This document shows positions 1-61,805 of a DNA stretch of 64,000 bases, piece after piece. Under the pieces are notes generated by a model. It saw nothing but the letters and a program-made list of their open reading frames with translations, was not told where the DNA came from and ran no database searches. Origin of the DNA: a virus (Duplodnaviria; Heunggongvirae; Uroviricota; Caudoviricetes); IMG/VR virus record IMGVR_UViG_3300028577_000006. One strand, given 5' to 3'. The stretch's first letter is position 1. Every line of letters begins with the position of its first letter. A program made the position numbers and the translations under genes.

Positions 1-644
1 CTGCTGCCGCGGTTCGCGAAGACGAGGGCAGCGATGCTGCCGCCAACGAGCCAGGTCGTCCACGACATGCCCAGCGGACCCGTGACCGTGCCGTCCGCCT
101 TCGTGGTCTCCAGGAACGAGTACCACTTCTTCGGAGCGCTCGTGACCGGCGCTGGTGTGGTCCAGATCGGCGTCGGTGCCATCGAGCCGTCCGACTGCTG
201 CGTCGGGACGGTCGCGATCGAGATCGGCGCTTGGACCGGCGCGGGCGTCGTGACTGGTACCGCCGTCATGATCGGGTTCGAAGTGTCCGCCGGAGCGATC
301 ACGCTGTTCGGATCGACATAGCCGCCCGGGTCGGCAACGTCGGTGCCGAGACCAAGCAGGCCCATGAGACCGCGGGCAGCCCGAATGGCGGGCGTCGCGC
401 GCAGGTCACCCGGCGCGTACCACATCGGCACCGCGCGCATACCACGCATCGCACGGATGCCACGCGACTCGATCGCCGTCGCGCCCATGCCGCTCATCGC
501 GCGCGAAGCACGCATCGCGCGAATCGCCTCTGGCGTCCGCCACACGCCAGGCCGTGTCGGGTTCGGGTATAGGATGGTCGGCCGACTGGCAGCGAGACCG
601 CCGCGATTCGCGGCAAGACCAACGGACGATGGACGGTACGACAT
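1..644 (-). CDS. Putative virion membrane protein, truncated by the window edge (MSYRP start, Arg/Ala/Met-rich N-terminus, Pro/Thr linker, hydrophobic C-terminal segment)
   Basis: Hand translation from ATG at 644: MSYRPSSVG...IRAMRASRAMSGMGA...GLLGLGTDV...MSWTTWLVGGSIAALVFANRGS, open to position 1. Absent from the ORF track because it is incomplete. Confidence 0.75.
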   Translation of the reverse strand, partial: MSYRPSSVGLAANRGGLAASRPTILYPNPTRPGVWRTPEAIRAMRASRAMSGMGATAIESRGIRAMRGMRAVPMWYAPGDLRATPAIRAARGLMGLLGLGTDVADPGGYVDPNSVIAPADTSNPIMTAVPVTTPAPVQAPISIATVPTQQSDGSMAPTPIWTTPAPVTSAPKKWYSFLETTKADGTVTGPLGMSWTTWLVGGSIAALVFANRGS

Positions 645-647
645 GGA

Positions 648-1586
648 TCAGGCCTTCCTGGCGGCGCGACGAACGCGCTTCGAGTGACGACGATTCTTCC
701 TGGACTTCCGCGACCGATTCGGAGTGGACTTCCGACTCATCAACACCCAGCCAACAGCCGCAAGAGCGGCAGCTCCAACGCCGACATACACCCATGTCAT
801 GTACGATCCAGACGCCGCTGACGACGTGACCGGCATCGCCTGGGTCGTCGAACCAACCAAATCGGACGGGCCGACACCTGGGTCTCCAGTCTGCGCGGTA
901 GCCATCGCTGCATTTGCCGCATCCTGCGCTGCCTGCGCTGCTGCCGCTGCCGCGTCTGCATTGGCCTGCGCCTGCTGAGCGGCGGCGGCATCAGACGCTG
1001 CCTGCGTCGCAGCCGCCTGCTGCGCAGCCTGATTGGCGACCGCCTGCTGCGTCTGTGCAGTGACCAAGGCACTCGTCGCCGCCTGTGTCTTGAGCGCCGC
1101 CAACGCGTTCAGCTTCACAGACACGGTCGGCAGCGTTCCGTCATACTTGCCAGCTGCGATATCAGACAGAAGACCTGTGATCGAAAGAACGCCAAGCTGT
1201 CGTAGCGCAGCCGCCGCGTCAGCGTACGGAGCACCCGCTAGCAGCGATGCGTTCATACTCAGTGCGTTTGCTGCATACGCTTGCAAAGCCGGCGACATGA
1301 TGTTCAGCGCCTGTGTCACAGCCGCCGGATCGATCTTGCCGAACGAGTTAGGCTTGAGCGCCTTCAGCAGCACACCAGAGGTGATCATCGGCGTTCGGTT
1401 CGTGTCGGATGACCCGAAGCTGCCACCGAGTGCGGTCAGATACGTGCCGAGCGCAGCGATGATCGCTGGATCGATGCCGACGTTCGTGCGCGCGGTTGGC
1501 GCTGGCGCGCTCGTGTTCAGATTCAACGCCGGGAAAGCGAGTCCGAGTCCTCCGAAACCTGCCTGCCCTTCCTCATAATAGCTCAT
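648..1586 (-). CDS. Ala/Gln-rich putative virion membrane protein with C-terminal TM helix and basic tail
   Basis: 312 aa ORF, ATGA overlap with the upstream gene, TM-like WVYVGVGAAALAAVGWVLM followed by SRKSTPNRSRKSRKNRR. Confidence 0.8.
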   Translation of the reverse strand: MSYYEEGQAGFGGLGLAFPALNLNTSAPAPTARTNVGIDPAIIAALGTYLTALGGSFGSSDTNRTPMITSGVLLKALKPNSFGKIDPAAVTQALNIMSPALQAYAANALSMNASLLAGAPYADAAAALRQLGVLSITGLLSDIAAGKYDGTLPTVSVKLNALAALKTQAATSALVTAQTQQAVANQAAQQAAATQAASDAAAAQQAQANADAAAAAAQAAQDAANAAMATAQTGDPGVGPSDLVGSTTQAMPVTSSAASGSYMTWVYVGVGAAALAAVGWVLMSRKSTPNRSRKSRKNRRHSKRVRRAARKA

Positions 1587-3814
1587 CTGGCTCTCCTACT
1601 CGTGCGACGGCGACGGGTGTTCTTGCGTGAGCGCGGATGCTCATGACTCGACACCGCGATCAGCGCGCCTGCGACTGCGACGGCCAATAGTAGCGGAACA
1701 GCGACGCTGTTGTCGACCTGACCGAGCCCAGACATACCGCCTGCCCTCTTCCACTGAGCGAGCAGGTCATCCATTCCTGCCGGATACGACTTGTACTCGG
1801 TCTTCCAGGCCTGGATTGTGTTCGCAACCAGCTGGGCGCCGGCCTGACTGGTGGGGCTCAAAGCACGCAGACACGCTAGCACATCCTGCTCGATCTGCCT
1901 TGCATGTGCGTCCGCATTTCCCTTACGGATGGGATCGGCGTTGATCGAGTTGACCTCAGCCCACTTCGAAACCGCCAGCTGATGGCCGGCGATGCATCGA
2001 CTGAGCTTTGCCGTCGTCAAATCGCGGTCTGCATTCGCATCGCCGTGAGCGCCCAGCCAGGCATATCCCACTGCGAGCGCAGCCAGCAGAGGGTTGATGA
2101 CGTTGGACAGCTCCCAGGCAGCCTTGTCGAAGTTGCTGGCCTCGGAAGTCCCCGACTGGTCACAGCCGGCACCCTTGATCTCGAAACACGACCAGCGCGC
2201 ATTCGCCGAGGCGAGCGCCGTGTTGATCACCACGATCACTTGGCGAATGAGCGTGCCGTTCTTGTCGATCTGTGTCGCAACCGCAGGCGCAGGCGCAGGC
2301 GTAGCAGCGGCGCCGAGACCGCTGGTTGGCGTTGCGCTGAATGTCGTGGGGCCAAGAAGGTTCGCAACTCTCTTGACGGTCGCCGCTGTGACCAGAAGCG
2401 GCACAGAGATCTGCGTCTGCGCAGCGTTCGATGCGTCCACCGCGATCGACATCGTCCCTGCCAAGAAGCCGGCGAGCTGCTGGCCAGCGGACATGAAGAC
2501 GCTGCGGATGTTGTTGCGTCTGACCGGATCGGAGTAATCGACGCTCTTGTACTCGTTGAACTTCGCGTTCACGTAGTCGTTGAGCGACGTCGCGGTGCGA
2601 ACGCGCAGCGCGATGTACGGCTTGTACCCGTCATCGCCAAAGCGAGCGAGCGAAGCAGAGACCTGCGCATACAGGTTCTGAAGCGGCACGACTGTCTGCG
2701 TCCACTCCTGCCCAGCCTTCGCGTCGCTTGCGTCCTCGTTCACGCCAAAACGATCGCAGCCAGATGCCGCCGTCAGAAAGCAGACCCAGCGCGAGTACGC
2801 CCGATCCAGCGCCGTCAAGATGATCGCCTCGGCCTTCTGCAAGCCGCTCAGCGTCGCGTAAATCGGTGCTGTCAGATCTGGAATGATGGCATTCAGATCG
2901 TTGACCGACTCAACCGCGCTGCCCCTCATGTCGGAGCGCGTGTTGTTCCTGTTCAGCGCGTCCGAGTAGTCGATCGTCTTGTACTGCGCGAACTTCTGAT
3001 TCGCCCAGTCGCTGGCGGCGGCTGCGGGGGCGAGCGTGATGCGCGCATAGTTGATGTTGTCCGCCTGAAGCGGGCTACTTCCAAAGCTTCCGATCTTTTG
3101 GACAGACAGTCCGTGAGCGTCCAACAGCGGCTGGATGGTGCGGGACTGCTCCTGCGCAGCCTTGTCGTTGCCGTGGTCTTCGTTCGCGCCGAATCGGCCA
3201 CAGCCCGATGCATCGTACTGGTAACAGATGCGGCGTGAGACCGCAGAATCGAGGGCTCGCAAGATCGACTGCCTGACAGCGTTTGCAGTCGCCACGTCCG
3301 TCGCCGCGCCCGCCGCAGACGCGTACTTCCCGGCCATCGCCTGGCCAGTGTCCAACATGTTCTTGCGGATGTTGTTCCGCTTCAACGCGTCAGAGTAGTC
3401 GGTGCTCTTGTACTCGTTGAACCAGTTCTCGATCTGCTCGAAGTCCTGGTCTGCATCAGACATGTTCGACATCGCGTTGTCGACGTTGCCGCCAGCCGCG
3501 CGCGTCTGCTGAATGCACTGAGCCACCTGCGTCTCGATGCGCGAGATGGACGGCTGATCTGGCGACGCTGCCGCCTTCATCTGAACCAGCTGCTGCTGCA
3601 ACTGCGCACACTGCGCTGCCAGTGCGGCAGGGTCAGGTCCGGCCGCTGCACCACTACCAGTAGCGCCGCCGCCTGCGGCTGCCCCGCTGCCGACGAGTGC
3701 GTACGCGGCCACGCCGCCAACGACTGCAAGGCCGCCGACCGCAAGCAGCTTCTGCTTGGTCGAGAGCGGATTGCGTCGCATCCGGCGCCTTCTCGTCTTC
3801 ATTCGGCGGGCCAT
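1583..3814 (-). CDS. 743 aa protein with two TM segments and three Cys-containing internal repeats
   Basis: N-terminal RRRMRRNP plus TM; repeats YKSxDYSDxxxRNNxR and C-x7-GC-x4-(N/S)E; C-terminal TM plus RKNTRRRRTSRRAR. Confidence 0.85.
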   Translation of the reverse strand: MARRMKTRRRRMRRNPLSTKQKLLAVGGLAVVGGVAAYALVGSGAAAGGGATGSGAAAGPDPAALAAQCAQLQQQLVQMKAAASPDQPSISRIETQVAQCIQQTRAAGGNVDNAMSNMSDADQDFEQIENWFNEYKSTDYSDALKRNNIRKNMLDTGQAMAGKYASAAGAATDVATANAVRQSILRALDSAVSRRICYQYDASGCGRFGANEDHGNDKAAQEQSRTIQPLLDAHGLSVQKIGSFGSSPLQADNINYARITLAPAAAASDWANQKFAQYKTIDYSDALNRNNTRSDMRGSAVESVNDLNAIIPDLTAPIYATLSGLQKAEAIILTALDRAYSRWVCFLTAASGCDRFGVNEDASDAKAGQEWTQTVVPLQNLYAQVSASLARFGDDGYKPYIALRVRTATSLNDYVNAKFNEYKSVDYSDPVRRNNIRSVFMSAGQQLAGFLAGTMSIAVDASNAAQTQISVPLLVTAATVKRVANLLGPTTFSATPTSGLGAAATPAPAPAVATQIDKNGTLIRQVIVVINTALASANARWSCFEIKGAGCDQSGTSEASNFDKAAWELSNVINPLLAALAVGYAWLGAHGDANADRDLTTAKLSRCIAGHQLAVSKWAEVNSINADPIRKGNADAHARQIEQDVLACLRALSPTSQAGAQLVANTIQAWKTEYKSYPAGMDDLLAQWKRAGGMSGLGQVDNSVAVPLLLAVAVAGALIAVSSHEHPRSRKNTRRRRTSRRAR

Positions 3815-3827
3815 TCGTCGTTCTCCC

Positions 3828-4118
3828 TCAGAGCCAGGACTGCGTGGCGCACATGTCCATGCATCGGCTGTACGCGCCCTCGGTCAGTGCACCTGAGCAT
3901 CGGTCTTCGCAGACCGGAGCCGTGTCGTAGTAGTAGCCGTACCCGTAGTAGCCAGGGCCCCAGCCCCACGACGGATAGCCCCAGCCGCTGCGACCGCGGC
4001 GCAGGCGTGGTCGACCGCGCCCGCCATGACCGCCGTGCCCATGACCGCCGTGCCCATGGCCACCGCCGCCGCCCTTGCCGAGGCCGCTGGCGATTCTCAT
4101 CGGCTGTCGATAGCTCAC
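3828..4118 (-). CDS. Small Gly/His/Tyr-rich protein with C-terminal Cx3C...Cx3C
   Basis: MSYRQPMRIASGLGKGGGGGHGHGGHGHGGHGG...CEDRC...CMDMC; GTGA overlap with the upstream stop. Confidence 0.7.
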   Translation of the reverse strand: MSYRQPMRIASGLGKGGGGGHGHGGHGHGGHGGRGRPRLRRGRSGWGYPSWGWGPGYYGYGYYYDTAPVCEDRCSGALTEGAYSRCMDMCATQSWL

Positions 4119-4450
4119 GAACGCCTACCCTTCCGTCGCTTCTTGCGCGTGCTCTTGTTCGCTGTTGGCCTCGGATGAGTCATGCGGTCGTAGAAGAACC
4201 ACAGTGACCATGCCGAGAGCGCCAAGCTCGCGTAGGCGACGTACTCCATGCGAACGGCCCGCGAGCGGTCTTCATCCACGGTCGTGGTCTGTCCGAGGTG
4301 GTCGTTCATCAGACGCGGCGGATGCGTCTGGAAAACCATCGGAGAGACGGTGCCACGCTGACGCTGGGGCTGCCCATAGTCGGCGAACACCCAGGGGTTC
4401 GTGACGCCCCAGTTCTGGTACCCGAGCGCTCGGTTGACCTTGTACGTCAT
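4115..4450 (-). CDS. Small membrane protein with basic tail
   Basis: MTYK start, TM-like YVAYASLALSAWSLWFFY, tail PTANKSTRKKRRKGRRS. Confidence 0.75.
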   Translation of the reverse strand: MTYKVNRALGYQNWGVTNPWVFADYGQPQRQRGTVSPMVFQTHPPRLMNDHLGQTTTVDEDRSRAVRMEYVAYASLALSAWSLWFFYDRMTHPRPTANKSTRKKRRKGRRS

Positions 4451-4453
4451 GAT

Positions 4454-4993
4454 TCAGCGCTTCTTCCTGCTCGTGCGCTTGGCGCGGCGACTGCCGCGCT
4501 TCTTCGGACGACTGTTGCGCTTCACGCGACGACGATTGGCACGCAGAGGGTGGCCGCCGATCTTGACCTCCACCTCGTCACCGTCCTCGTCGGTCCGATC
4601 CATGTCGGGCGTCCAGTCGGGATGCGACGGCGAGTACAGCGAGAGATCGAACGAGCCGAACTTCTTCGCCGCTGCTGTGAGCTTCTTGCCAGCCGCTTCT
4701 TCCCAATCATCGTCCTCCCAGAATCCGACGCCATGATCGTTGCGCGTCATCCAGAAGTCGTAGCCGGCCTGCTCGTCCTCGTCGCCACGGCCGAGAAACG
4801 CACCGCTCCAGATCGGCTCGTTGTCGGCGTAGAACTTCTCGCAGTCACGCTTCATCGCTGCGAGTGTCTCTGCGTCGATGTCGCTCGGCTCGTAGTTCTT
4901 GTCGAGCGGATAGCCGCCGCTGTCCGTGCTCTCGTCGTTCGAGGCAAAGAGCGCAGCTTCGATGTACGCATCCGTGAAATCCTTGAGACTCAT
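4454..4993 (-). CDS. Conserved-looking phage protein (AGYDFWMTRNDHGVGFW motif) with basic tail; possible virion core protein
   Basis: 179 aa ORF with an acidic globular part and tail RANRRRVKRNSRPKKRGSRRAKRTSRKKR. Confidence 0.75.
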   Translation of the reverse strand: MSLKDFTDAYIEAALFASNDESTDSGGYPLDKNYEPSDIDAETLAAMKRDCEKFYADNEPIWSGAFLGRGDEDEQAGYDFWMTRNDHGVGFWEDDDWEEAAGKKLTAAAKKFGSFDLSLYSPSHPDWTPDMDRTDEDGDEVEVKIGGHPLRANRRRVKRNSRPKKRGSRRAKRTSRKKR

Positions 4994-5289
4994 CGTGCTC
5001 TCCTGCTCGTGCGGCGCGCACGACGACTCGTGCGGCGATTCTTCTTCATCGGACCCAGCGTCGTCAGGCCTTCGCGCTTGCGGTCAGCGTCGATCTTCAT
5101 CCGCTTCGCAACCACAGCGCTCATCGCGGCGTGGAAGTCCGGACTCGTCGAAGTCAGCGACAGGGCGCCGCTTTCCAAGATGAGCTTCACGTGCCAGCGA
5201 ACGCCGTCGTAGCGACAGTCGATCGCACGCTCGCCGCGGGGGCGAGCCCGCACCCAACGTTCCGCCTGCATACGCGCCTTCGTGGTCAC
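4990..5289 (-). CDS. Small basic protein with Arg-rich tail
   Basis: GTG start at 5289 overlapping the upstream TGA; ends KKNRRTSRRARRTSRRAR. Confidence 0.65.
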   Translation of the reverse strand: MTTKARMQAERWVRARPRGERAIDCRYDGVRWHVKLILESGALSLTSTSPDFHAAMSAVVAKRMKIDADRKREGLTTLGPMKKNRRTSRRARRTSRRAR

Positions 5290-6050
5290 CGGCGGCCTCG
5301 GCTCGTGCGCCTCTTCGTGCGGCTGGTACGCTTCAGATTCTCTGTGACGCGCCAAACGGAGCGGACAAGAGCACGGCGCTCTGCGGCCGTCAGCTCAAAC
5401 TTCTTCTGAACACGCGTGAGCGCCGCCTCACGCTTGGTGCCCAGATTTCGCAGCTTCAGCGCCATCACACGTGCTGCTGTGAACCTGTCCGGACCATTCC
5501 TCTTCGATGCGTTCTGGACGCGATACTCGTTCGCCCACTCCTCTGCCATTTCCTTCGCGACCTGCTTGCGGGTCGCCGGAGTGAACAGACGGTTCCACGT
5601 TCCGCCAACATCCTTGGCGTACTTCTTCGCGCCTTCATCCACGATCCAGCCGAAGCCCTTCGCGGCGAGAGCGAGATCGAACTTGCCCTGCTGCATGCGC
5701 CTGACGAGCGCTTCGCGATACGCCGCGCCCTTCTGGTACGTCGGGTAGTCGTTGTCGATGAAGAGCTTCAACTCGTCCGCTTGCTCTTGGTCGAGCGAGC
5801 CGCCGCGTGCATTTGATGTGAGTGGCTGCGAGTCCCAAACAATCCACACCCAGCCGCGCTTGGGCGCGTCCGTGTACAGGCGCTGGGGGTAGGTCTCCCG
5901 ACGAAGCCACGCGAGCTGGCCACTTGGCATCTGCACGCGCACCTCACGTCCCCAATCAGGAAGCTTGACGCCCGTGGCGCGTGCGAGCTTGCCCGCGTCC
6001 GCGTCAGAGATGCGGTAGTGCGTGCCGCCAGAGATGGACTTCAGCTTCAT
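5286..6050 (-). CDS. Hypothetical protein (ADELKLFIDND...GKFDLALAAK domain) with basic tail; possible core protein
   Basis: 254 aa ORF with coding-like GC3; tail VTENLKRTSRTKRRTSRGRR. Confidence 0.75.
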   Translation of the reverse strand: MKLKSISGGTHYRISDADAGKLARATGVKLPDWGREVRVQMPSGQLAWLRRETYPQRLYTDAPKRGWVWIVWDSQPLTSNARGGSLDQEQADELKLFIDNDYPTYQKGAAYREALVRRMQQGKFDLALAAKGFGWIVDEGAKKYAKDVGGTWNRLFTPATRKQVAKEMAEEWANEYRVQNASKRNGPDRFTAARVMALKLRNLGTKREAALTRVQKKFELTAAERRALVRSVWRVTENLKRTSRTKRRTSRGRR

Positions 6051-6052
6051 GA

Positions 6053-6400
6053 TCAGTCCTCGTTGCCAGCCTTCATGTTCCGGCGAGCGAAGCGCTTGTT
6101 GCGCTCACTCTTCTTCTTGCGCGCGTGGCGCGGGCGCCACCATCCGAAGTACGCCCAGATCGCGCCCATGCCGACTGCGCCGACCGCGAGTCCGAACGTC
6201 ATCGTGCGGTAGAACGGGACCGTGTCCGTTGCCGTCGTCGCAGGCGTCTGCCCGATACCGTACAGCGGATACGGCGCCATGCCGGCTGCCTGACGGGCGC
6301 CGCCACTCGCTCGCTGCGCCTCCGCCGCGTACATGACGGGCCCTGGGCTGCCGTCCTGATCGACCACGTAGTCCGCTGCGCTCATCTTTCGCGGTGCCAT
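6053..6400 (-). CDS. Small membrane protein with basic tail
   Basis: LYGIGQ motif, TM-like FGLAVGAVGMGAIWAYFGWW, tail RPRHARKKKSERNKRFARRN. Confidence 0.75.
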   Translation of the reverse strand: MAPRKMSAADYVVDQDGSPGPVMYAAEAQRASGGARQAAGMAPYPLYGIGQTPATTATDTVPFYRTMTFGLAVGAVGMGAIWAYFGWWRPRHARKKKSERNKRFARRNMKAGNED

Positions 6401-6403
6401 GAC

Positions 6404-7900
6404 TCAGTTCTTCCTTCCACGGCGCGACGAGCGCCGGCTGTTCCGCTTCATCTGACGCATCATCTTCCGGAAGCTGTTCTTGACGTTCGCGGTCATCTTC
6501 TTGCCCGTGTCCGTCTGCGTCGCGGCGAGATAGCCGACTCCGAGCACGCCCACGCCGATCGCGATGTTCCTCGGCGTCAGAAGACCGAGCCCAGAAGAAG
6601 AAGTCGCAGGCGCCGGTGCAGGGGCCACAAGCGAGTCCGGCGCAGTCTGCGTGACCTCGCCCATGCCCGCTGCTGCCGGCGAGTGATAGAAGCTGCCCAG
6701 GTCGGCCTGAAGCTTCTTCTGATCGGCAACGAGCGGACCGATGTGGTCGGCTGCCGCCTTCGAGAGCGCCGGCTTGTTCGCGCGAATCGACGAGGCCATC
6801 CGATCGAGTCGCGGCAGACCGCCGCCAGCCTTGGCCCGATCCGACAGGTCGCGCATCGTCGCATGCATCACGCAGTGCGCGAGCGTGTCTTCGAGCGCTG
6901 CGTCGGGCTTGTAGCCCATCTGCACGAGACGATCGGCGACGAGCTTCGCCTTGCGCGCCATCTGCGGACCGAGCGCATCCGTCGCCGACGCGAGGAACTG
7001 CGAGCGCGTCGCCTGGCTCGGCATCAGCTTCGCCTCGGAGATGAGGCAGCTGGCCGCCTTTCGCCCGAACGCCTCGATGTGCGAGGACGGCCCGAGACGA
7101 TCCGACTGCATCTTCGGCATCGGCCGACGACCCTGCGCGTTTCCGTTCATGAACGGGCTGAACGCCTTCGGCGGCGGCGCGAGCGCCGGCACGCGCTTGC
7201 TGAGTGGAACGCCACTCGCGTTGACCTGCGTGACGGTCCAGTTGTCAGCGGTGGAATCCCACATCGCCGACTGCTGCATGCCGTCTGGATCTTCCTCTGC
7301 GATGTACGCCGGCTGCGCGAACTGGTTGGCAAAGATGCCGTCTCGCGCGCGGAACGTGACACCCTCTTCGACGTCGAAGATTCCAGAGCCGATGACGTTC
7401 TGTTCGCTGTCGTCGTACTCGTAGGACGAGCGATCGTACTCGGTGAGCGGATCGATGCCCTCGTGCGATGGCATCTCGTTCTCTTGCGACGGAACGAACG
7501 CCGCCTGGCGCGCGATCGAGTCGGGCGTCGCGTAGCGCGGCATCAGGCCGTTCGACGACTGACGAGCGTCCGAGTCGCCGAGATCCGACATGTCCGTGCC
7601 CTGCTGCGAGTACGGACGATAGCCGGAGTTGTCCGCGATCTGCCACGGGTTCTCGCCGTACGTCGTCTGATTCATGCCAGGACCGTTGTCCATGTCATCC
7701 ATCATGACGAAGCTCGACGTGCCCTCGACATCCGTCGCCGGAGCAGGACCACCGCCGCGCTTCGGGAGTTCCTCCTGAAGCTCATCGGTCAGGAAGTCGT
7801 CATCCACGGACGAGCCCTGGTAGTCCTGCACGTCGAGGTTGGCATTGCCGCGCATCGTCGGCAGCTCCATCTCGTCATCTGCAAAAAGGTCTTCGCTCAT
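6404..7900 (-). CDS. Protein with acidic disordered N-terminus, helical domain, C-terminal TM and basic tail
   Basis: ATG at 7900 (MSEDLFADD) with upstream GGGAAGAG; TM IAIGVGVLGVGYLAAT; tail MTAN...KRNSRRSSRRGRKN. Confidence 0.8.
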   Translation of the reverse strand: MSEDLFADDEMELPTMRGNANLDVQDYQGSSVDDDFLTDELQEELPKRGGGPAPATDVEGTSSFVMMDDMDNGPGMNQTTYGENPWQIADNSGYRPYSQQGTDMSDLGDSDARQSSNGLMPRYATPDSIARQAAFVPSQENEMPSHEGIDPLTEYDRSSYEYDDSEQNVIGSGIFDVEEGVTFRARDGIFANQFAQPAYIAEEDPDGMQQSAMWDSTADNWTVTQVNASGVPLSKRVPALAPPPKAFSPFMNGNAQGRRPMPKMQSDRLGPSSHIEAFGRKAASCLISEAKLMPSQATRSQFLASATDALGPQMARKAKLVADRLVQMGYKPDAALEDTLAHCVMHATMRDLSDRAKAGGGLPRLDRMASSIRANKPALSKAAADHIGPLVADQKKLQADLGSFYHSPAAAGMGEVTQTAPDSLVAPAPAPATSSSGLGLLTPRNIAIGVGVLGVGYLAATQTDTGKKMTANVKNSFRKMMRQMKRNSRRSSRRGRKN

Positions 7901-7949
7901 GTCCGTCTCTTCCCGCTTGTTGTAGGCGCCCAGCCTGTTTCGGTATCGA

Positions 7950-8663
7950 TCAACTAAGAAGAATCCACGCAAGGGCGGCGACACCCAGAATCCCGCCGCC
8001 AGTCATGATCAATCTGTTACGCGCCACCGTCGCACTGGCCGCTGACTGCTGAGCAAGAAGCAGCTGCTGCTGCGCTTGCTGAGCCTGAGTGGCGGCGAGT
8101 GTCGCCTGAGCTTCGCGCTGTTCCCGAGAACAGTCCATCGCTCCACCGGCGATTTGTGAACCAACTCCGATGAGGCCACCGATGATTGTACCGTAGACCG
8201 GTACGATGCTGACGATCCCGCCAGCAGTTGCTGCACCGCCAGCGATTGTGCAGCCTGCGGCACGATCGTTCTCGGAAAGCTGACCCAGCGGGGTGTCGAG
8301 GAGTCGGTCCCAGCCGAGCTTGTTGCCGACTTCGTTCCGGACCGCCTGCGCGCCGCGCTTGTAGACGCGCTCCGCAAGCGTGCCGCGAATCGCGTCGAAC
8401 ATCGCTTGGTCCTTGTTGCGATCCTTGAGATTCGTCGCGTACCGAACAGTGACCGACGGCCACAAGCCCGGCTGAAGCTCGTCGAGCTTCGCGCGAAGGA
8501 CGGCGTACCGATCGGCGACAGGCGCCCTGGCGACCGCCAACATGATGCTGCTCGCATCGAGAGACGCGCGCGCGAAGATCGGATTCGAGGACGCAGCCGC
8601 CCCGACAGAGATGCCTGTGGCTTCTCCGAGACCTCGACGCCTGCGTGCTGCTCGATACGACAC
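7950..8663 (-). CDS. Putative virion membrane protein, paralog of the gene at 8667-9428
   Basis: MSYRAARRRRGLGE start; ASSIML...QPGL...KDQAMFD domain; glycine-zipper segment; C-terminal TM. Confidence 0.8.
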   Translation of the reverse strand: MSYRAARRRRGLGEATGISVGAAASSNPIFARASLDASSIMLAVARAPVADRYAVLRAKLDELQPGLWPSVTVRYATNLKDRNKDQAMFDAIRGTLAERVYKRGAQAVRNEVGNKLGWDRLLDTPLGQLSENDRAAGCTIAGGAATAGGIVSIVPVYGTIIGGLIGVGSQIAGGAMDCSREQREAQATLAATQAQQAQQQLLLAQQSAASATVARNRLIMTGGGILGVAALAWILLS

Positions 8664-8666
8664 ACG

Positions 8667-9428
8667 TTACTTCTTCAGAACGCCGTAGAGGATGGTCGCG
8701 ATCACCAGCCCGCCGCCGCCGAGCAGTAGGTACTGGAAGGTCATCTGCTCTTGGTGCTGTTGCAGCTGAAGCTGCTGGAGCCCACTGCTCTGCGCTGCCT
8801 GTGCCTGCGCCTGCGCGGTCTGAGCCTGAAGCGCCAGCTGACCCGCGTTGCATCCGGCGATCTGCCCGCCAGCCTGAGCACCCGTGATGCCAGATGTCGA
8901 ACTACTGCCACCGGTGTTGAACTGCGCGAGCAATCCGCTGACGAGACCGGTGGTGCCAGCGCCGTACGAGCAAAACAGCGCGTTCGCATCGTTGACGCCC
9001 TGACTCGTGTGGCCTGCGACCTCCGCGACTGTCTGCCCGAGACCGGACACCCCCTTGGCAGCGGCGAGCGTCCGCGCTGTCAGGACGTTGGCAACGGCAG
9101 CAGTGATGACGTCGAACATCGCCTGGTCCTTCGCCGTCGTCGGCTTGCCAGCCGAAAGACGGTGGAAGTTCAGCTTGGCAGTCTCTCCAAGGCCAGGCTG
9201 CGCTGCGTTCAGGATGGAGACCATCTCTCCAAGACGCTTGGCAGGCGGAACCGAAGCCATACGGAGCATGATCTGCGATGCGAGGACGGACGCCGAAGAG
9301 ACGATCGGGTTCGTCTGCGTCAGAGCGCTCGCAACAACCGGAGCCTGCTCTGGCTCCACGGCACCCAGCCCGAGAAGGCCGCGACGCGACATCCCTCGGA
9401 GCCTGGAGACTCGGCCTCGGTAGCTCAT
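8667..9428 (-). CDS. Putative virion membrane protein, paralog of the gene at 7950-8663
   Basis: Start at ATG 9428 (MSYRGRVSRLRGMSRRGLLGLGA) with SD AGGAGAAGG; ASQIML...QPGL...KDQAMFD; C-terminal TM. Confidence 0.8.
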   Translation of the reverse strand: MSYRGRVSRLRGMSRRGLLGLGAVEPEQAPVVASALTQTNPIVSSASVLASQIMLRMASVPPAKRLGEMVSILNAAQPGLGETAKLNFHRLSAGKPTTAKDQAMFDVITAAVANVLTARTLAAAKGVSGLGQTVAEVAGHTSQGVNDANALFCSYGAGTTGLVSGLLAQFNTGGSSSTSGITGAQAGGQIAGCNAGQLALQAQTAQAQAQAAQSSGLQQLQLQQHQEQMTFQYLLLGGGGLVIATILYGVLKK

Positions 9429-9841
9429 GACCTTCTCCTGCGACGACGACGACCGTTTGCGGTCGACGGCGCTCTTTTGGGAGAGCGCATGGCCAGCATG
9501 ATGATTCCGAAGAGCACTACCGCGCCTCCGATCGCCAGATACACCGGCGCATTGCTCGACTGCGACATCGGCACCTGGGACGCCTGAAACCATCCGGGCT
9601 GCGTGCTTGCAGCAAACGATGCGTTGATGTCCTTCTGTGGAGTGATCGACGCCGATGGGATGCCGCTCTTCGTTCCAGACGCAGGGGCGCCACTCGTCGT
9701 CGGCTGAGCCAGCTGCGAGATCGCTCCGTCGATGTCCAGCTGCTGCGCGGGCGTAGACGAGATCGTGACCTGGCCAAAGCCATGCCCGCCATGATGCTGG
9801 GCGCGCAGAGATCCAGCGCGCGCTGTCGGCTTGTAGCTCAC
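9425..9841 (-). CDS. Small membrane protein with basic tail
   Basis: GTG start at 9841 (MSYKPTARAG...HGFGQ); TM VYLAIGGAVVLFGIIMLAM; tail STANGRRRRRRRS. Confidence 0.75.
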   Translation of the reverse strand: MSYKPTARAGSLRAQHHGGHGFGQVTISSTPAQQLDIDGAISQLAQPTTSGAPASGTKSGIPSASITPQKDINASFAASTQPGWFQASQVPMSQSSNAPVYLAIGGAVVLFGIIMLAMRSPKRAPSTANGRRRRRRRS

Positions 9842-10179
9842 CTGGACCTCTTCCTGCGACGACCGTTGCGCCTCGCAGCAGCGGGCTTGCCGAAGCCTTG
9901 TGCGAGCGCGATGGGGAGACCGAGCGGCCAGAACGCGCCGCCGACGATGCCCCAAACGAGCGCCCAGCCGATGGACTGATTGCGCTTGTAACCGTGGTAC
10001 GCGAGAGCAACGACCGAAGCCGTACCCGCAACGTACATCGCGGTGCGCACCGGCTGCGAGATGGTCAGAGCCGTGCTCGTGGACGTCGTCGCCACCGGCG
10101 TAGCCGGTGCCGCCTGCTGTCCAAGGCCTGCCGCCGCGAAGAGCCCGCCGCCCGGCCCGTAATAACCCATGCCCTGCAT
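9838..10179 (-). CDS. Small multi-TM membrane protein with basic tail
   Basis: MQGMG...AAGLGQ; two hydrophobic segments; tail AARRNGRRRKRSR. Confidence 0.75.
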   Translation of the reverse strand: MQGMGYYGPGGGLFAAAGLGQQAAPATPVATTSTSTALTISQPVRTAMYVAGTASVVALAYHGYKRNQSIGWALVWGIVGGAFWPLGLPIALAQGFGKPAAARRNGRRRKRSR

Positions 10180-10201: not shown

Positions 10202-10816
10202 TCAGAAGGATTGGACGTCGAAGTTCGAGTACTGCTTGACGCGCTTCAGCATGCTCGCCGTGCGACGTCCGGCGACCGGATCGAGTACCCACCAGGTCTT
10301 GGTGCGCGGGTCCTGTGCCGTCGCGAACACGTGCGTGTGTACCTTCGGCTCACCGGGCCAGCGCGGCGAAAATCCGACTGTCACGAAGCGGACTGGCGCA
10401 CCGATGCAAAGACACGTCGTGCCGATCGCGAGAGCAAGGTCGTCGCAATCGAACGCACCACGACCCGAAAGCGCGTCATCGAGAAGGCGCTCTGGATCGC
10501 GAATCATCTCGACGTGTACGGGGTCGCGCGTGTACCTGCCGGCGTTTCCCCACCAACGACAGATCGAGACGACCTCCGAAACGTAGTCCTTCGGTCGTAC
10601 GTTGCAGATGATCTGCTCAGCGTGGCGGCGCACCTTGAACGAGCGCTCGCCACGATCACCCAGTGCAAGCTGGATCATCTTCGCAACCGTGTGGTCAGTG
10701 CCACGATACGGTTCGAGAGTGCCTACGGCGTTGTTGTACGCCGGTGAATAAACGCTTGCGCGGAGCATCGGCTGTTTTTTTAGCCGTACCCGAAGCGCCC
10801 GGAAGGAGTCTCGCAC
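10202..10816 (-). CDS. Transglutaminase-like cysteine protease (Cys-His-Asp triad)
   Basis: RYTRDP...GAFDCDDLA...VRFVTVGF...HTHVF...WWVLDPV matches the transglutaminase-like core. Start uncertain (10816 or 10768). Confidence 0.8.
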   Translation of the reverse strand: MRDSFRALRVRLKKQPMLRASVYSPAYNNAVGTLEPYRGTDHTVAKMIQLALGDRGERSFKVRRHAEQIICNVRPKDYVSEVVSICRWWGNAGRYTRDPVHVEMIRDPERLLDDALSGRGAFDCDDLALAIGTTCLCIGAPVRFVTVGFSPRWPGEPKVHTHVFATAQDPRTKTWWVLDPVAGRRTASMLKRVKQYSNFDVQSF

Positions 10817-11194: not shown

Positions 11195-13828
11195 CTACTC
11201 GCTCTCGTCTTCGCGCGCGAGTTCCTCACGGAGCAGTGCCATCGACGCACGCACGAACTGCTGGCCGCCGGGCGAGACTCCGGCGCTTCGCGGCTCGACG
11301 GCTGCGATGCCCGCCAAGATCTCCTGATCGCTCTTGGCGGCCAGGCCCTCCAAGATCGCAGTCGGATAGTCGCCGTCCATGATCTTGTCCACGAAGTCCT
11401 CGGGCTCATCGCCCGACACCACTGCTTCGTGAATCATCTTGGCGACCATCTGCGCGATCTGCTTCTCGATGGCGTTCATCGGGACCTTCTCCGGGCGTGC
11501 GGCGCCTGCGGCCTGCGGCGCCTGCGGCTGTTGTGGTGCGCCCTGCGGCAGTTGCTGCTGAGGCGGCTGCTGCTGAGCAGGCGCTTGTGGTTTAGCCTGT
11601 GAGGGCTTTCCCGCAAAGGGACCAGGCTTCTTCTCCCACGGCGGGATCGGATGCGGAAGTCCTTCGGCGAGATTCGGAAGCGGATCGAAGTTGGCTGAGC
11701 CGCCGCGCTTGCGACGAACGGGCGCCGGGCGCGGATCGCCATGCACCATGCCACCCGGTGGCATCGGCTGGCGCGGAGCTGGCGCCGGCTGCCTTGGCTT
11801 CGGTTCGCCCGCCGGAAGCAGACGAGCTGGCGCTGGAGCCGCGCCGACCGGCGTCAGCCGGGGGCCGTGCTCGGTCTGCACAACCATCATCGGTCCCATG
11901 GGCGTTTCGACCATCTGACCCGGAACCATGCCGCCGCCCTGCTGCTGTGGCGCGGCCGGTCCGCGCACGAGGCTGCCCAAGGCGGTCAGAAGCTCTGGAC
12001 CGCGCTCTGCGATCGTCTGCACGACTTCGTTCACGTCCAGGCCGGACCCAGAGAGGCCGATTCCAGACGACGAACTCGAAGACGAGGAAGACGCGACGGG
12101 CGTGTTCTCGACCAGGCCCAGGCCGTGTTGCGCCGCTTCACGGAACTCGCGGAAGCGAGCCATCTGCGCAACCGGATCGTGCGTGTCCTGGAGCTTGCTG
12201 CGGACTTCGCCGATCTCACGCACCTTGGTGTCGATCTCCTGTTGAAGCCAACGCACGCGCTCGGCGTGATTGGTCTCGATCATGGAGATGCGCGCCTCGT
12301 ACTGCTGCTTGATGCGCTCTTCGGCCTGATCTTGCCTGTCCTTCGCTGCCTGATCGCGCTCGTTCTGCTGATCGCGAGCACGATCTTGATCGCGCCGACG
12401 CTCGTCGCGCTCGTTCTTGATCTGCTCTTCGAAGCGCTGCTCTCGGTGCTTCCAAGACTCCCGCTCCGACTGAAGCTCTCGCGCACCAGCCTCACGAAGA
12501 GACGCGATCTCGCGATCGTGTGCAGCGCGTTCCATTCGCAGCTGCTCTTCCTGGCGAGCATCACGCGTCGTCTGTTGCTCGCGAAGCGCGGCGATCTCCC
12601 GCGAGTTGGCTTCGCGCGTCGCCGCGATTTCCCGCTCGTGCCCCGAGCGAAGGCTTTCGATCATCGACTGCTGCTGCTGACGCATGGCGTCCATCTCAGC
12701 ACGATGCTTCTCCGCCGACTGATCGATCACCTTGCCCGCAAGCTCCAGCTCGCCCCGCTGTGGCGGCTGCGGAGGAGGAGGCGGCGGCGGCTGAGGCATC
12801 GCCGACATGAGTTCGCGGAACTCGGACGCCAGGCTGGGACGATTGTTCTCCATCTCGTGAACCTTCCGCAGCTGCTCTTCCAAACTTCGCCGCTGATCTT
12901 CGACCGACTTCTCCAGCAGGCGGTAGCGCTCTTCGGCTCGCTCACGCTCCATCGCCAGGCGATCTTCCATCGCCTTCTTCTCCGCATCGAAGCGCTCTTG
13001 CGTGAGGCGCGTGACGTCGTTGGCCCGACGCTGCTCTGCCTCGATGATCGGCTGCGCAAGCTGTCGCGCTTCCTGGATGCCGACGTCAGCGCGGTCTTCT
13101 GCGCGCTCCGTCCGAGCACGCTCCGACACGATGACCTCTTTGAGCGCGCCCAGCGTGCTCTCGACGATCTTCGGGTCTTCTCGTGGCGACGAAGGAGGCA
13201 TCATCATCGTGGGGAAAGACGCTGCGGCAGATGCTCCGCCATCCTTGGCGTCCATCGTCTGCTGCGCGCGCGAAACACGATGCATCTTTGGCTCGCCCTG
13301 GATGTTCACGCGCACCGACTCGTAGTGCTGCGTGCCGATGTTCGTGCCGGACTTGGGCCCCACAACGCGCACGAGATATTCGCCGCCGCCGTACTCGTTC
13401 GAGATGAACGCTTCGTCGATCGGCTGGTCGTAGTCGTCGAGAAACCCGTCAGCCTTTCGTCCTCCGAAGAAGATCTTCGGCCACGTGCGATGGACCTGAA
13501 GCCTGAACTCGGGCCGCTGACCGATGCTGTACTTCGAGACCAGGTCTCCAAGCATCTTGACGTTCTCGACCGGCTTCGGCAGGTCTGGAACCACCGTGTG
13601 AAGCGCTTCCAGCTGCTCCAGCGTGATCGGCTTCAGGTCGTTCCTGTCCGCCTTCTCGGTCCGCGCTGACGCCATAGGAGACGGCATCTCGGCATCGTCG
13701 ACCTTGGACTCTTCGCCGTCGCCGTCGCTGTCGATGGCACGGGCCGCCGGCTTCTTCTTGCCGGCGCCACGCCTGTTCACGACGTTCTCGACGATCTTGT
13801 CGACCTCGTCCTCAGCCGCCTCAGACAC
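11195..13828 (-). CDS. 877 aa coiled-coil and Pro/Gln-rich protein; possible scaffold or membrane-assembly factor
   Basis: Long E/R/Q heptad-like central region, Pro-rich linkers, N-terminal VHRTWPKI...GGGEY domain. Confidence 0.85.
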   Translation of the reverse strand: MSEAAEDEVDKIVENVVNRRGAGKKKPAARAIDSDGDGEESKVDDAEMPSPMASARTEKADRNDLKPITLEQLEALHTVVPDLPKPVENVKMLGDLVSKYSIGQRPEFRLQVHRTWPKIFFGGRKADGFLDDYDQPIDEAFISNEYGGGEYLVRVVGPKSGTNIGTQHYESVRVNIQGEPKMHRVSRAQQTMDAKDGGASAAASFPTMMMPPSSPREDPKIVESTLGALKEVIVSERARTERAEDRADVGIQEARQLAQPIIEAEQRRANDVTRLTQERFDAEKKAMEDRLAMERERAEERYRLLEKSVEDQRRSLEEQLRKVHEMENNRPSLASEFRELMSAMPQPPPPPPPQPPQRGELELAGKVIDQSAEKHRAEMDAMRQQQQSMIESLRSGHEREIAATREANSREIAALREQQTTRDARQEEQLRMERAAHDREIASLREAGARELQSERESWKHREQRFEEQIKNERDERRRDQDRARDQQNERDQAAKDRQDQAEERIKQQYEARISMIETNHAERVRWLQQEIDTKVREIGEVRSKLQDTHDPVAQMARFREFREAAQHGLGLVENTPVASSSSSSSSSGIGLSGSGLDVNEVVQTIAERGPELLTALGSLVRGPAAPQQQGGGMVPGQMVETPMGPMMVVQTEHGPRLTPVGAAPAPARLLPAGEPKPRQPAPAPRQPMPPGGMVHGDPRPAPVRRKRGGSANFDPLPNLAEGLPHPIPPWEKKPGPFAGKPSQAKPQAPAQQQPPQQQLPQGAPQQPQAPQAAGAARPEKVPMNAIEKQIAQMVAKMIHEAVVSGDEPEDFVDKIMDGDYPTAILEGLAAKSDQEILAGIAAVEPRSAGVSPGGQQFVRASMALLREELAREDESE

Positions 13829-14462
13829 TCGGCGTACCGTCGGGCTTCTTGTCCGCCGCCGACGCCTCCGTCTCTGCCGCCTCCGACGCCGCGCCTTCTT
13901 CAGGCTCCTCGTCTTCGTCGCCGTCCTCGTCCTCGTCCTCGTCGTCCTCGTCGTCCTCGTAGTCGTCGTCTTCGTCCTCGTACGTGGTCATCTCTTCGAG
14001 GAGGATGTCGATCTGTTGCGAGACCGCTCCGTAGGCCTTCATGACCTCCTGATCCTCTGGCAGCTTCTTGGTCAGCAGAGCGCCGAGCGCGTGCATCGCG
14101 GCCACGATGGCCTGCACGGTTTCCATGGAGGCGCCGCCATCGTCGCCCTCGTCGTCGCCGATGTAGTCGTTCACCGTGCGACGGAGGCGATGGATGTCTT
14201 CGGCGTTGCTCGCTGCGAGCGCGTACGTGTCGTTGAGCGCTGGCCCGAAGATCTCGATGATCTGCACCATCTGCGGATACAGGAACTGCGCCACGAACTG
14301 CCGCAGCTGTTCCGGATCTGCGAACACCGGCTTGCCGCCGTTGCCCTTGTCCTTCAGCAGCTTCTTGCGCGAGCCCTGAAGGTCGCTCCGGAACTTCGCC
14401 AACATGGGCGCAAGCGGAACTTCGGTGGGCTGCTCGATCGACGTGCTCTCGTTTTCGCTCAT
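13821..14462 (-). CDS. Highly acidic protein with Asp/Glu-rich tail
   Basis: 213 aa ending in EDEDDDYEDDEDDEDEDEDGDEDEEPEE; overlaps both neighbours. Confidence 0.8.
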   Translation of the reverse strand: MSENESTSIEQPTEVPLAPMLAKFRSDLQGSRKKLLKDKGNGGKPVFADPEQLRQFVAQFLYPQMVQIIEIFGPALNDTYALAASNAEDIHRLRRTVNDYIGDDEGDDGGASMETVQAIVAAMHALGALLTKKLPEDQEVMKAYGAVSQQIDILLEEMTTYEDEDDDYEDDEDDEDEDEDGDEDEEPEEGAASEAAETEASAADKKPDGTPSV

Positions 14463-15022
14463 GTGCTCTCCTGCTGGTTCAACGCCTCTTCGACGTCGAT
14501 CTCGCCATAGTCACGGGCAGCTTCACGGGACTGCTGCTCCTGCCTGTTCTCGAAGTCGTCGATCATCTTCACCGACGCCGGATCCCGGCGCGCGTGCTCC
14601 TCGTCGCTGACCGACTCGCGCAAGTAGCAGGCGAAGATGGACGTCTCACCGATCTTCATCAGCTCGCTCTGGGACGCGAGACGCAGGCAGAATCGGTGGA
14701 TCTGCTGCGGTGCCGTGAAGCCCGCGATCTTGCCCTCGGCCTCGGTGAGCATCGGCGCGTAGTAGCGGCACGGCCGGCGGCCGGTCGCAACATCGCCCTT
14801 GCACACCAGCGTACGAGGGCTCACCCAAGACTTGGGACCGGGGTCTTCAGTCACGATTTGAACTCCCTGCCCAGGCGGCCCTTCCACCACGGCGAGCGCT
14901 CCGAACTCCACGTGTGCACCAAGCGGATCCGCAGGCATCGGTACCTGAAAATCACGCTCGGACACGCCAACCGTAGGTTTGCCGTCGTCCCCGGTAACGG
15001 GGATCTCGTCTGAAGCGCCCAT
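14459..15022 (-). CDS. Hypothetical protein, first gene of the leftward operon
   Basis: 187 aa ORF with high GC3 and ATGA overlap with the next gene. Confidence 0.7.
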   Translation of the reverse strand: MGASDEIPVTGDDGKPTVGVSERDFQVPMPADPLGAHVEFGALAVVEGPPGQGVQIVTEDPGPKSWVSPRTLVCKGDVATGRRPCRYYAPMLTEAEGKIAGFTAPQQIHRFCLRLASQSELMKIGETSIFACYLRESVSDEEHARRDPASVKMIDDFENRQEQQSREAARDYGEIDVEEALNQQEST

Positions 15023-22796: not shown

Positions 22797-23309
22797 GTGT
22801 CCGACAAAAAGCCGCACCCGATCACCACGATGGCCGCTCCAACAGAGCGGCGCGTCAGAGAAGCGCTCGTCACCCTGTCGTACTTCCTGCGCGAGAACGC
22901 AGGATCGAGCGAGCGTCTGCTCGATGACTCGGACATTCCCGACGTCAGATTCGACCAGGTCTTGCACCCGGCGCAGCTGGCGGCCATGGCAATCACATGC
23001 TCGGTCCTGGCCGAGAGTCTTCACGATCAGGAGAGCAGCAAGCTCTTCGTCGTGGCATCGACGGACCTGAACTGCGCGGCAGCACACCTCGTCAGTCAGA
23101 TAGCGCACGAGCCTCTCGTCAACGACTACGAGCACACCTCACGCGAGGAGCGCTTCATCGATCTCCAGCAAGCACAGCGGCGCTTCGCGGCGCGCGCGAC
23201 CAAGTCTGGGCGCCAGCTGACGCACCTCGGCCTCAGCCGGCTCTCCGAGATCTGGCCCGAGGCCTACGAGAAGGACGACGAGGCCCGGGACCACGGAGGA
23301 CACGAATGA
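22797..23309 (+). CDS. Hypothetical protein
   Basis: AAGGA upstream; a TGTCCGACA palindrome overlaps the GTG start. Confidence 0.65.
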   Translation: MSDKKPHPITTMAAPTERRVREALVTLSYFLRENAGSSERLLDDSDIPDVRFDQVLHPAQLAAMAITCSVLAESLHDQESSKLFVVASTDLNCAAAHLVSQIAHEPLVNDYEHTSREERFIDLQQAQRRFAARATKSGRQLTHLGLSRLSEIWPEAYEKDDEARDHGGHE

Positions 23310-34895: not shown

Positions 34896-34969
34896 TCTTC
34901 CTTCGCCTGGACGCTGCGCAGCCCGGCGAATATCACCTATCGTCGGCGCGCACCATCCCGGTCTTCTTC

Positions 34970-61796: not shown

Positions 61797-61805
61797 GGTG
61801 CTCTG

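Follow-up and report, generated by a model that had tools for sequence, protein, structure and literature searches.

We analyzed a 64,000-nucleotide stretch of viral DNA (IMG/VR record IMGVR_UViG_3300028577_000006, Caudoviricetes; hereafter the window) in which many proteins encoded between positions 648 and 10179 end in a short Arg-rich tail that starts at an Asn. The window has a G+C content of 64%, and one long minus-strand operon spans positions 1 to about 16,000. In this operon, most genes overlap through ATGA or GTGA, and the ribosome sites are of the AGGAG type, indicating a prokaryotic virus or mobile element. Outside the operon, the window codes for a helicase, an archaeo-eukaryotic primase, an RNA ligase, an ATP-grasp protein, and an intein-bearing giant protein. 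A sequence-only reading had listed ten Arg/Lys/Ser C-terminal tails at 648 to 10179 and had proposed that they form a common tag, which binds genomic DNA or a scaffold to bring cargo into the particle. All ten tails were found on the minus strand where that reading had placed them, and they are listed here with an N-terminal arm and one possible outlying copy:

651 to 719, minus strand: tail of a 312-residue protein (gene 648 to 1586), 23 residues from the junction Asn, net charge +13
1586 to 1621, minus strand: tail of a 743-residue protein (gene 1583 to 3814), 12 residues, net +7, after the second membrane helix
3767 to 3814, minus strand: N-terminal basic arm of the 743-residue protein, ending Arg-Arg-Asn-Pro just ahead of the first membrane helix
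4118 to 4159, minus strand: tail of a 111-residue protein (gene 4115 to 4450), 14 residues, net +9, junction Pro-Thr-Ala-Asn
4457 to 4537, minus strand: tail of a 179-residue protein (gene 4454 to 4993), 27 residues, net +17, junction Leu-Arg-Ala-Asn
4993 to 5040, minus strand: tail of a small soluble protein (open reading frame [ORF] 4990 to 5355), 16 residues, net +9
5289 to 5339, minus strand: tail of a 254-residue soluble basic protein (gene 5286 to 6050), 17 residues, net +9, junction Val-Thr-Glu-Asn
6056 to 6136, minus strand: tail of a 115-residue membrane protein (gene 6053 to 6400), a weak Lys-rich variant that ends in an acidic stretch
6407 to 6487, minus strand: tail of a 499-residue protein (gene 6404 to 7903), 27 residues from a Thr-Ala-Asn junction, after a membrane helix
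9428 to 9457, minus strand: tail of a 138-residue membrane protein (gene 9425 to 9841), 10 residues, net +7, Ser-Thr-Ala-Asn-Gly and then seven Arg
9841 to 9867, minus strand: tail of a 113-residue membrane protein (gene 9838 to 10179), 9 residues, net +6, junction Arg-Arg-Asn-Gly
34310 to 34348, plus strand: possible outlying copy on an acidic 163-residue protein (33860 to 34351), Asn initiated, 13 residues, net +6

Measured from the junction Asn, the window tails are 9 to 27 residues long with net charges of +6 to +17. Several gene starts were corrected: the gene listed as 9425 to 9955 starts at a GTG at 9841, overlapping the upstream stop, the gene listed as 6404 to 7984 starts at 7903, and the start of gene 8667 to 9428 was also changed. 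The true start of ORF 4990 to 5355 is probably later than 5355. The outlying tail at 34310 to 34348 is without orthologue support, and its membership in the set is uncertain. The first gene of the window (3 to 644, minus strand) runs off the window start, placing its C terminus outside the window. However, its orthologue in the relative G001 (described below) ends in a short Thr-Pro-Asn-Lys-His-Arg-Arg-Arg tail, so this gene probably encodes an eleventh tagged protein.

The tails follow proteins of different kinds. The 312-residue protein has a Gly/Ala-rich membrane helix and then a short basic linker ending Ser-Thr-Pro before its tail, which contains a 24-nucleotide tandem duplication at 691 to 734. 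The tail of the 743-residue protein closes with an R-R-T-S-R-R-A-R unit. Its N terminus, reported in the sequence-only reading as RRRMRRNP, is indeed a basic arm ending Arg-Arg-Asn-Pro, and we read it as a leader version of the same module with the Asn on the body side. In the 111-residue protein, the tail comes after an aromatic hydrophobic segment. The 179-residue protein is soluble and acidic with a phrog_1915-type domain, and its tail closes with a K-R-T-S-R unit. The tail at 4993 to 5040 consists of two tandem R-R-T-S-R-R-A units with a 21-nucleotide period, the first in CGT codons and the second in AGG AGA, the Shine-Dalgarno sequence of the next gene. The tail of the 254-residue protein holds two R-T-S-R units; an ESM Atlas look-up with this protein gave no usable match (TM-score of about 0.33). 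The tail of gene 6053 to 6400 is the weakest of the ten, and its Lys-rich shape with an acidic end is kept in all relatives. The tail of the 499-residue protein is partly amphipathic and continues with K-R-N-S-R-R.

Two further points of the sequence-only reading concern the tail bearers, and both were borne out: the tail does occur on soluble proteins, as all three encoded at 4454 to 6050 lack a hydrophobic segment (17-residue Kyte-Doolittle maximum of 0.2 to 0.7), and R-T-S-R does recur in four window proteins. The other seven tailed proteins have a hydrophobic segment 7 to 25 residues ahead of the Asn. Searches of the ten tailed proteins against Pfam, PHROGs, and NCBIfam gave a single match, phrog_1915 for the 179-residue protein.

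Relatives of the window were found only as uncultured sequence, six in all with 45 to 84% identity:

G001: IMG/VR contig, 297,749 bp, 72 to 76% identity
G002: IMG/VR contig, 152,857 bp, 48% identity
G003: 161,502 bp with direct terminal repeats, 45 to 49% identity
G004: 159,872 bp with direct terminal repeats, 45 to 49% identity
L028: metagenome contig, 84% identity
L029: metagenome contig, 76% identity

We used whole contigs for G001 to G004 and called their genes by our own codon-usage method, while database gene calls were taken for L028 and L029. Three window proteins had zero matches among 50,697 cultured-phage records, and a search of the literature on the motif and on Arg-tailed phage membrane proteins turned up nothing relevant.

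Basic tails are strongly clustered. Between 648 and 10179, 10 of 13 co-directional genes are basic tailed, versus 2 of about 52 in the rest of the window (Fisher P = 1e-7). The homologous blocks show the same concentration: tails are on 13 of 30 genes at 226 to 250 kb of G001 versus 5 of 312 elsewhere (P = 7e-12), and on 9 of 15 genes at 127 to 140 kb of G002 versus 4 of 147 elsewhere (P = 2e-8). Tagged genes are thus concentrated in the late operon, where they adjoin putative structural genes. Across the window, G001, G002, L028, and L029, 65 of 614 proteins have an Asn followed by at least 50% Arg/Lys to the C terminus. An Asn start was found in 37 of 60 basic-tailed proteins of the window, G001, and G002 but in only 4 of the 510 proteins without a basic tail. 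The 65 Asn-initiated tails fall into about 34 groups without BLAST similarity outside the tail, and 16 of these groups have orthologues in at least two genomes. About 14 groups lack a membrane helix (hydrophobic segment), and about 20 carry the tail after one.

The tails have a defined composition and a defined start. Their median length is 15 residues and their median charge +9, with about 62% Arg plus Lys (51% Arg and 12% Lys) and a 5.6-fold enrichment of Arg. The remaining residues are Ser, Thr, Asn, Gly, Ala, and Pro; acidic and hydrophobic residues are almost absent, and the tails are essentially free of Asp, Glu, Ile, and Cys. The junction consensus is hydrophobic-x-(Ala/Pro)-Asn and then Arg-Arg-Arg, based on group-weighted preferences for Ala (37%), Lys, Arg, or Pro at position -1 of the Asn, for Thr, Arg, Ala, or Lys at -2, and for Val, Leu, Ile, or Met (52%), Ala, or Pro at -3. 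When the tail start was defined independently of the Asn, 17 of 67 tails had Asn immediately ahead of their first basic residue (2.4% in the proteome; binomial P = 3e-13). Of 64 strong tails, 46 have Asn within two residues of this start, compared with 12 for Ser, 12 for Gly, 7 for Thr, and 4 for Gln. On membrane proteins, the order of elements is helix, short basic cluster, small or Pro-rich linker, Asn, and tail. Because a basic cluster of its own already follows the helix, the tail is an element added to the usual positive-inside residues.

Within the tails, residue order is also constrained. Thr-Ser occurs 39 times versus 2 for Ser-Thr, and R-x-S-R occurs 51 times versus 2 for R-S-x-R, with about 6 each in shuffled tails. 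The most frequent starting point of the (K/R)-R-(T/N)-S-R-(R/K) unit is exactly eight residues from the end, with another copy seven or eight residues further up. Asn is also found inside tails (R-R-N-S-R-R). The order of the R-x-S-R sites is therefore real. The suggestion of the sequence-only reading that RxxS/RTS sites could be phospho-switches found no support beyond this order, although a host kinase could supply the activity. No protein kinase scored above the Pfam cutoff in the whole of G001 and G002, and FHA is not conserved there. The window does encode an FHA-domain protein (22997 to 24079, plus strand; Pfam E = 1e-14), whose counterpart is absent from G001 and G002.

The codons of the tails bear on whether they are functional at all. 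Of the 85 Arg codons found three or four codons from the stop (-3 and -4), 53 are AGG or AGA, a share that falls to about 5 to 10% elsewhere, and 46 of the 65 tailed genes run into the next start through an ATGA or GTGA overlap. Rare codons at the end of the tails do, as had been proposed, double as the Shine-Dalgarno sequence of the next gene, and this accounts for two residues, in keeping with the earlier view that it explains the final few only. An AGY codon is used for the unit's Ser in about 33 of 35 cases, and together with the tandem duplications inside tails (at 691 to 734 and 4993 to 5040), this suggests that tails grow by slippage and spread by copying. Such features would be expected if the tails were functionless, a by-product of translational coupling, G+C-rich codon usage, and the positive-inside rule, with short duplications arising by slippage of a terminal cassette. 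We consider this origin very improbable. Coupling covers two of a median 15 residues, while upstream copies of the K-R-T-S-R-R unit are written in CGN codons, and soluble proteins are tailed as well. The Asn junction and the Thr-Ser order go far beyond composition, and tails are rare in the rest of these genomes, where G+C content and coupling do not differ. N-terminal and internal copies of the module, described below, cannot stem from a downstream ribosome site. A repeated DNA element beneath the tails was also considered and rejected, as the only matches were 20 to 28 nucleotides long at 75 to 80% identity and correspond to the peptide unit plus the ribosome site.

Comparison of orthologues gave the same answer. 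The tail and its Asn are kept in six relatives, down to 45% identity, which answers the question, left with the sequence-only reading, of whether the Asn is conserved in homologues. The junction Asn of the 499-residue protein is retained in 7 of 7 genomes. Orthologues of the 111-residue protein were found in 5 of 5 relatives examined (G002, G003, G004, L028, and L029), and those of G002, G004, L028, and L029 have a tail with the junction Asn. Orthologous tails differ at 329 third, 219 first, and 170 second codon positions, with 208 synonymous versus 222 nonsynonymous codon changes. The excess at third positions means that the tails are translated and constrained, a codon-position bias that weighs against a by-product. 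A frame artifact was ruled out by this codon-position pattern and by the conservation of tails among orthologues. Thus, the counts largely refute a pure by-product, which we regard as effectively excluded.

All eight clade homologues of the 179-residue protein are tailed and keep both the junction Asn and the terminal unit, and the sequences of six more distant homologues end with the globular domain. An exhaustive search placed the domain in 5,800 clusters (E of 0.001 or less), and among the best 149 of the 5,800 cluster representatives, only the two nearest to the query had a tail. One tail-less homologue lies among small early-type genes on an unrelated 86-kb phage contig. From this distribution, the phrog_1915-type domain appears to have gained its tail in this virus lineage only. 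AlphaFold2 predicted a confident fold for residues 1 to 149 of the 179-residue protein, with residues 150 to 179 unstructured and without secondary structure (tail pLDDT of about 48). The globular domain has no Pfam model and is often fused C-terminally to longer proteins.

Enzymes are among the tagged proteins. A Fic/DOC-family enzyme (Pfam E = 3e-13) encoded at 248945 to 249418 of G001 (L025:8945 to 9418; plus strand) has a full tail with two R-x-S-R units. Its gene sits in the structural block on the opposite strand, and we regard the protein as a candidate for a packaged enzyme that modifies the host. Outside the structural block, nucleotidyltransferase-like proteins (window 46131 to 46760; G001 195879 to 196499 and 197146 to 197847) also end in basic tails; the K-R-T-S-R unit is present in one of them and the junction Asn in none.

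The module is not confined to C termini. In G001, G002, and L029, the K-R-T-S-R-R unit also occurs in N-terminal leaders, which end in Asn, mostly as Asn-Pro, and internal modules have Asn on one or both flanks. Toward the body, the Asn has a small residue or Pro next to it and a hydrophobic residue two or three positions off, so that by this pattern the flanks are mirror-symmetric about the module. The mirrored flanks had suggested a helix-capping role for the Asn, which we treat as speculation only, as AlphaFold2 predicts the tail without a helix.

These N-terminal and internal modules argue against a sorting machine specific for C termini. Known signals of the sortase, exosortase, or MYXO-CTERM kind do end in a membrane helix and an Arg cluster, as many tagged proteins here do, and a host or viral transpeptidase could in principle read the tails. 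However, the best NCBIfam sorting-domain models reached only E = 0.03 and 0.14, with scores less than half of their cutoffs. The elements also come in another order (helix, linker, Asn, and then a long tail), the helix is not preceded by a signature motif, and about 14 groups are without a helix altogether. We therefore find a sorting signal of this type scarcely credible and, like the by-product origin, effectively excluded.

The position of the Asn raises the possibility that it is a processing site, with the Arg segment cut off after assembly by an operon protease or by Asn cyclization, freeing protamine-like peptides or removing an assembly tag, much as adenain processes the core precursors of adenovirus. 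Asn stands exactly at the junction of tails, leaders (mostly Asn-Pro), and linkers, and a cut after it would part body from module in every orientation. Self-cleavage after Asn is established for the coat proteins of nodaviruses and tetraviruses, for picornavirus VP0 and reovirus mu1 (Asn-Pro), and for FlhB/YscU (Asn-Pro). The operon encodes one candidate processing enzyme near the tails:

10202 to 10816, minus strand: transglutaminase-like (papain-fold) putative cysteine protease, PF01841, 22.9 bits versus a cutoff of 23

Still, this protease match is borderline, and no Asn-specific peptidase family was detected. The flanks are mirrored, with the small residue or Pro and then the hydrophobic residue always on the body side, unlike a directional P4-P1 site. 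Asn also occurs inside tails, and few proteases cut before Pro. On balance, we think cleavage at the Asn decidedly unlikely.

A dedicated protein made of the module in tandem was found in each of the four relatives used as whole contigs. In G001 to G004 (4 of 4), a tandem gene pair encodes a protein of about 245 residues (202 to 271) with an N-terminal Arg arm and a repeat protein of 740 to 921 residues:

G001, 218134 to 220356: repeat protein
G002, 120944 to 123403: repeat protein
G003, 33931 to 36696: repeat protein
G004, 60057 to 62771: repeat protein

The repeat protein has several hundred residues of Arg/Ser repeats (300 to 400 module residues) and a net charge of +113 to +197. Tail-type junctions, such as Val-Thr-Ala-Asn and Met-Thr-Ala-Asn, precede 26 of 52 modules. 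The tails on other proteins thus look like single units of what may be a protamine-like repeat protein. Both proteins of the pair also end in a conserved Gly-Tyr-Ala-Gly-Gly.

The number of tails per relative ranges from 4 to 18, with 4 in G003 and 6 in G004, two relatives that retain the Asn junction without the Thr-Ser unit. The repeat region is more highly charged where tails are fewer, and G003 and G004 have the most charged repeat proteins. Summed over tails and repeat protein, the charge per gene set is 297 for G001, 218 for G002, 215 for G003, and 236 for G004. This trade-off is a weak hint that tails and repeat protein share a function, drawn from four genomes for proteins whose copy numbers are not known.

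Taken as sequence, then, the tag is a real, selected, and portable module with a defined grammar. The proposal of a common tag stood in this part: about 34 unrelated groups, a conserved Asn, lineage-specific gain, tagged enzymes, and clustering in the late operon show a portable shared element that is neither the positive-inside rule nor a by-product of coding. We infer the rest of that proposal, namely, DNA as the ligand, a location in the virion, and a role as cargo address. A disordered arm of about +9 that occurs at either terminus, can be repeated, and reaches +113 to +197 in tandem most plausibly has a polyanion as its ligand, and for a virus DNA is the obvious one. Binding to DNA or a scaffold, as first proposed, is strengthened by the finding that the module in tandem makes a protamine-like protein. 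The addition of the tail to a widespread domain, the late-operon placement, and the tagged enzymes are consistent with an address label on proteins that accompany the genome. With moderate confidence, we therefore favor a portable polycationic tag that binds packaged DNA or the core and addresses cargo to the particle.

The mechanism we propose has the following parts. A disordered polycationic module, often built of (K/R)-R-T-S-R-R units and joined to its host protein through Asn, is attached in this lineage to the C terminus, and less often to the N terminus or an internal linker, of dozens of unrelated proteins, whose genes lie mostly in the late structural operon. The module would most likely bind packaged double-stranded DNA or a DNA-protamine core. 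On membrane-anchored and inner virion proteins, the bound module would tie its host to the genome and help to neutralize the genome. On soluble proteins, such as the protein with the phrog_1915-type domain, the Fic/DOC enzyme, and the nucleotidyltransferases, it would serve as an address that brings cargo into the particle, and in tandem it makes up the dedicated protamine-like protein.

Several observations weigh against this account. Virion location is deduced from operon position only, and the particle type of the virus itself is unproven: Pfam searches of the whole of G001 and G002 gave no matches to an HK97-type capsid, Terminase_6N, or an FtsK-type ATPase. An M23 peptidase was likewise not matched in these two contigs. 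Tail number varies from 4 to 18 among relatives, three of them of near-equal genome size, so the tails cannot be a fixed packaging requirement. The gene calls are home-made, and off-frame ORFs are Arg-rich in DNA of 64% G+C, so that a few of the tails that lie outside the operon and occur as singletons may not be real. Finally, a membrane helix precedes the tail in about 20 of the 34 groups, and the positive-inside rule predicts that such a tail is cytoplasmic. In PRD1-type assembly, the cytoplasmic face becomes the outer, capsid-facing leaflet and not the DNA side.

The predicted cytoplasmic, and thus capsid-facing, topology keeps a different ligand, anionic lipid or an acidic scaffold, a serious rival to DNA. 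The tag would then be an assembly address that recruits membrane and peripheral proteins to the anionic lipid of an internal viral membrane, or to an acidic scaffold expelled at a later stage. Polybasic stretches are established binders of anionic lipids, and in the helix-bearing groups, the tail begins 6 to 30 residues after the membrane-like helix. A scaffold is suggested by the genes at the head of the operon:

11195 to 15022, minus strand: three acidic proteins, namely, an 877-residue coiled coil (net charge -23), a 213-residue protein (net -38), and a 187-residue protein (net -13)

The 213-residue protein (13821 to 14462, minus strand) is the most acidic of at least 100 residues in the window, G001, G002, L028, and L029, and its gene is directly upstream of that for the 877-residue coiled coil. 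These proteins are scaffold-like and could be a partner for the basic tags. Lipid or scaffold as the ligand accommodates less readily the approximately 14 groups that are soluble and the modules that serve as leaders and internal linkers. The repeat protein is also hard to fit, as its charge resembles that of a nucleic-acid condenser, and the helices have a basic cluster of their own before the linker and Asn, leaving the tail as an extra. We consider this rival unlikely but worth serious attention.

The DNA-binding and processing ideas can be joined by analogy to the adenovirus core. One Asn-bounded module would then have three roles: a building block of a protamine-like core, a label that loads dozens of unrelated proteins, host-modifying enzymes among them, onto the genome for joint delivery, and, through cleavage after the Asn, a source of free DNA-condensing peptides. 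We offer this combination as a rather unlikely possibility.

Two other observations were made in the operon. Seven of its genes (starts at 644, 1586, 4118, 4450, 8663, 9428, and 9841) begin Met-(Ser/Thr)-Tyr, mostly followed by Arg or Lys in a short basic stretch up to Gly-hydrophobic-Gly. Such starts recur in G001, G002, L028, and L029, and the C-terminal tag is present on some of these proteins and not on others, which points to a second, separate terminal signal. In L029, an IS605 OrfB/TnpB-type gene (L029:5889 to 7025) is inserted in the middle of the structural operon.

Among known systems, the tag is best filed, by analogy, with the Arg-rich genome-binding arms of viruses, here in the form of a multiprotein tag in a lineage of bacterial viruses. 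The C-terminal domain of the hepatitis B core protein and the coat arms of nodaviruses, bromoviruses, sobemoviruses, and circoviruses are likewise terminal, disordered, and Arg-rich with interspersed Ser, Thr, and Asn, over 10 to 40 residues, and the hepatitis B core protein also has Arg-x-Ser type sites embedded in its domain. Unlike these arms, which belong to one coat protein, the tag described here is found on about 15 to 30 unrelated proteins per genome, including membrane proteins and enzymes. It also differs in its fixed Asn junction, its ordered K-R-T-S-R-R unit, and its setting in a 150- to 300-kb double-stranded DNA virus of bacteria, where binding to nucleic acid would be its presumed activity. 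Adenovirus offers a second parallel in its proteins VII, V, pre-Mu, and pVIc, that is, a dedicated basic core protein plus short basic peptides on other proteins with a defined junction. A putative cysteine protease is encoded with the structural genes here, as adenain is in adenovirus. However, the junction is Asn rather than (M/I/L)-x-Gly-Gly, the protease is transglutaminase-like (papain fold) rather than clan CE, the host is bacterial, and cleavage is hypothetical.

As a label, the tag resembles the capsid targeting sequence of T4 and the cargo-loading peptides of encapsulins, which are short terminal tags on unrelated proteins and absent from outside homologues, with cargo that includes enzymes likely acting in the newly infected cell. 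Those tags are short and hydrophobic or of a Gly/Leu type and dock in a pocket of the shell or scaffold. The tag described here is instead polycationic, variable in length, repeatable, and found at either terminus, suggesting a polyanion ligand rather than a pocket. Many tagged proteins share with PEP-CTERM, MYXO-CTERM, and LPXTG proteins an end made of a membrane helix and an Arg cluster, but they have no signature motif before the helix, no profile match, and a much longer tail, and soluble and N-terminal carriers exist.

The general view of bacterial viruses is that their DNA is packed naked, with no protamine-like proteins, and that special-purpose contacts serve to load the few proteins that they inject. 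The Arg-tail design is known from hepatitis B virus and adenovirus and hardly from bacterial viruses. What is new here includes the Asn-junction and Thr-Ser statistics, the lineage-specific gain of tails, the mirrored leaders and linkers, the repeat-protein junction common to four genomes, the quantified limit of the ribosome-site contribution, and the variation in tail number among relatives. This lineage appears to combine a dedicated Arg-repeat protein with one simple, charge-based label that can be transferred and that marks dozens of proteins. If the label binds the genome, the core-protein strategy seen in adenovirus and hepatitis B virus would have been invented here independently. In that case, an Asn junction with an Arg tail would predict the virion and injected proteome of uncultured viruses from sequence, and the module would offer a tag, usable as it stands, for bringing foreign proteins into such particles.

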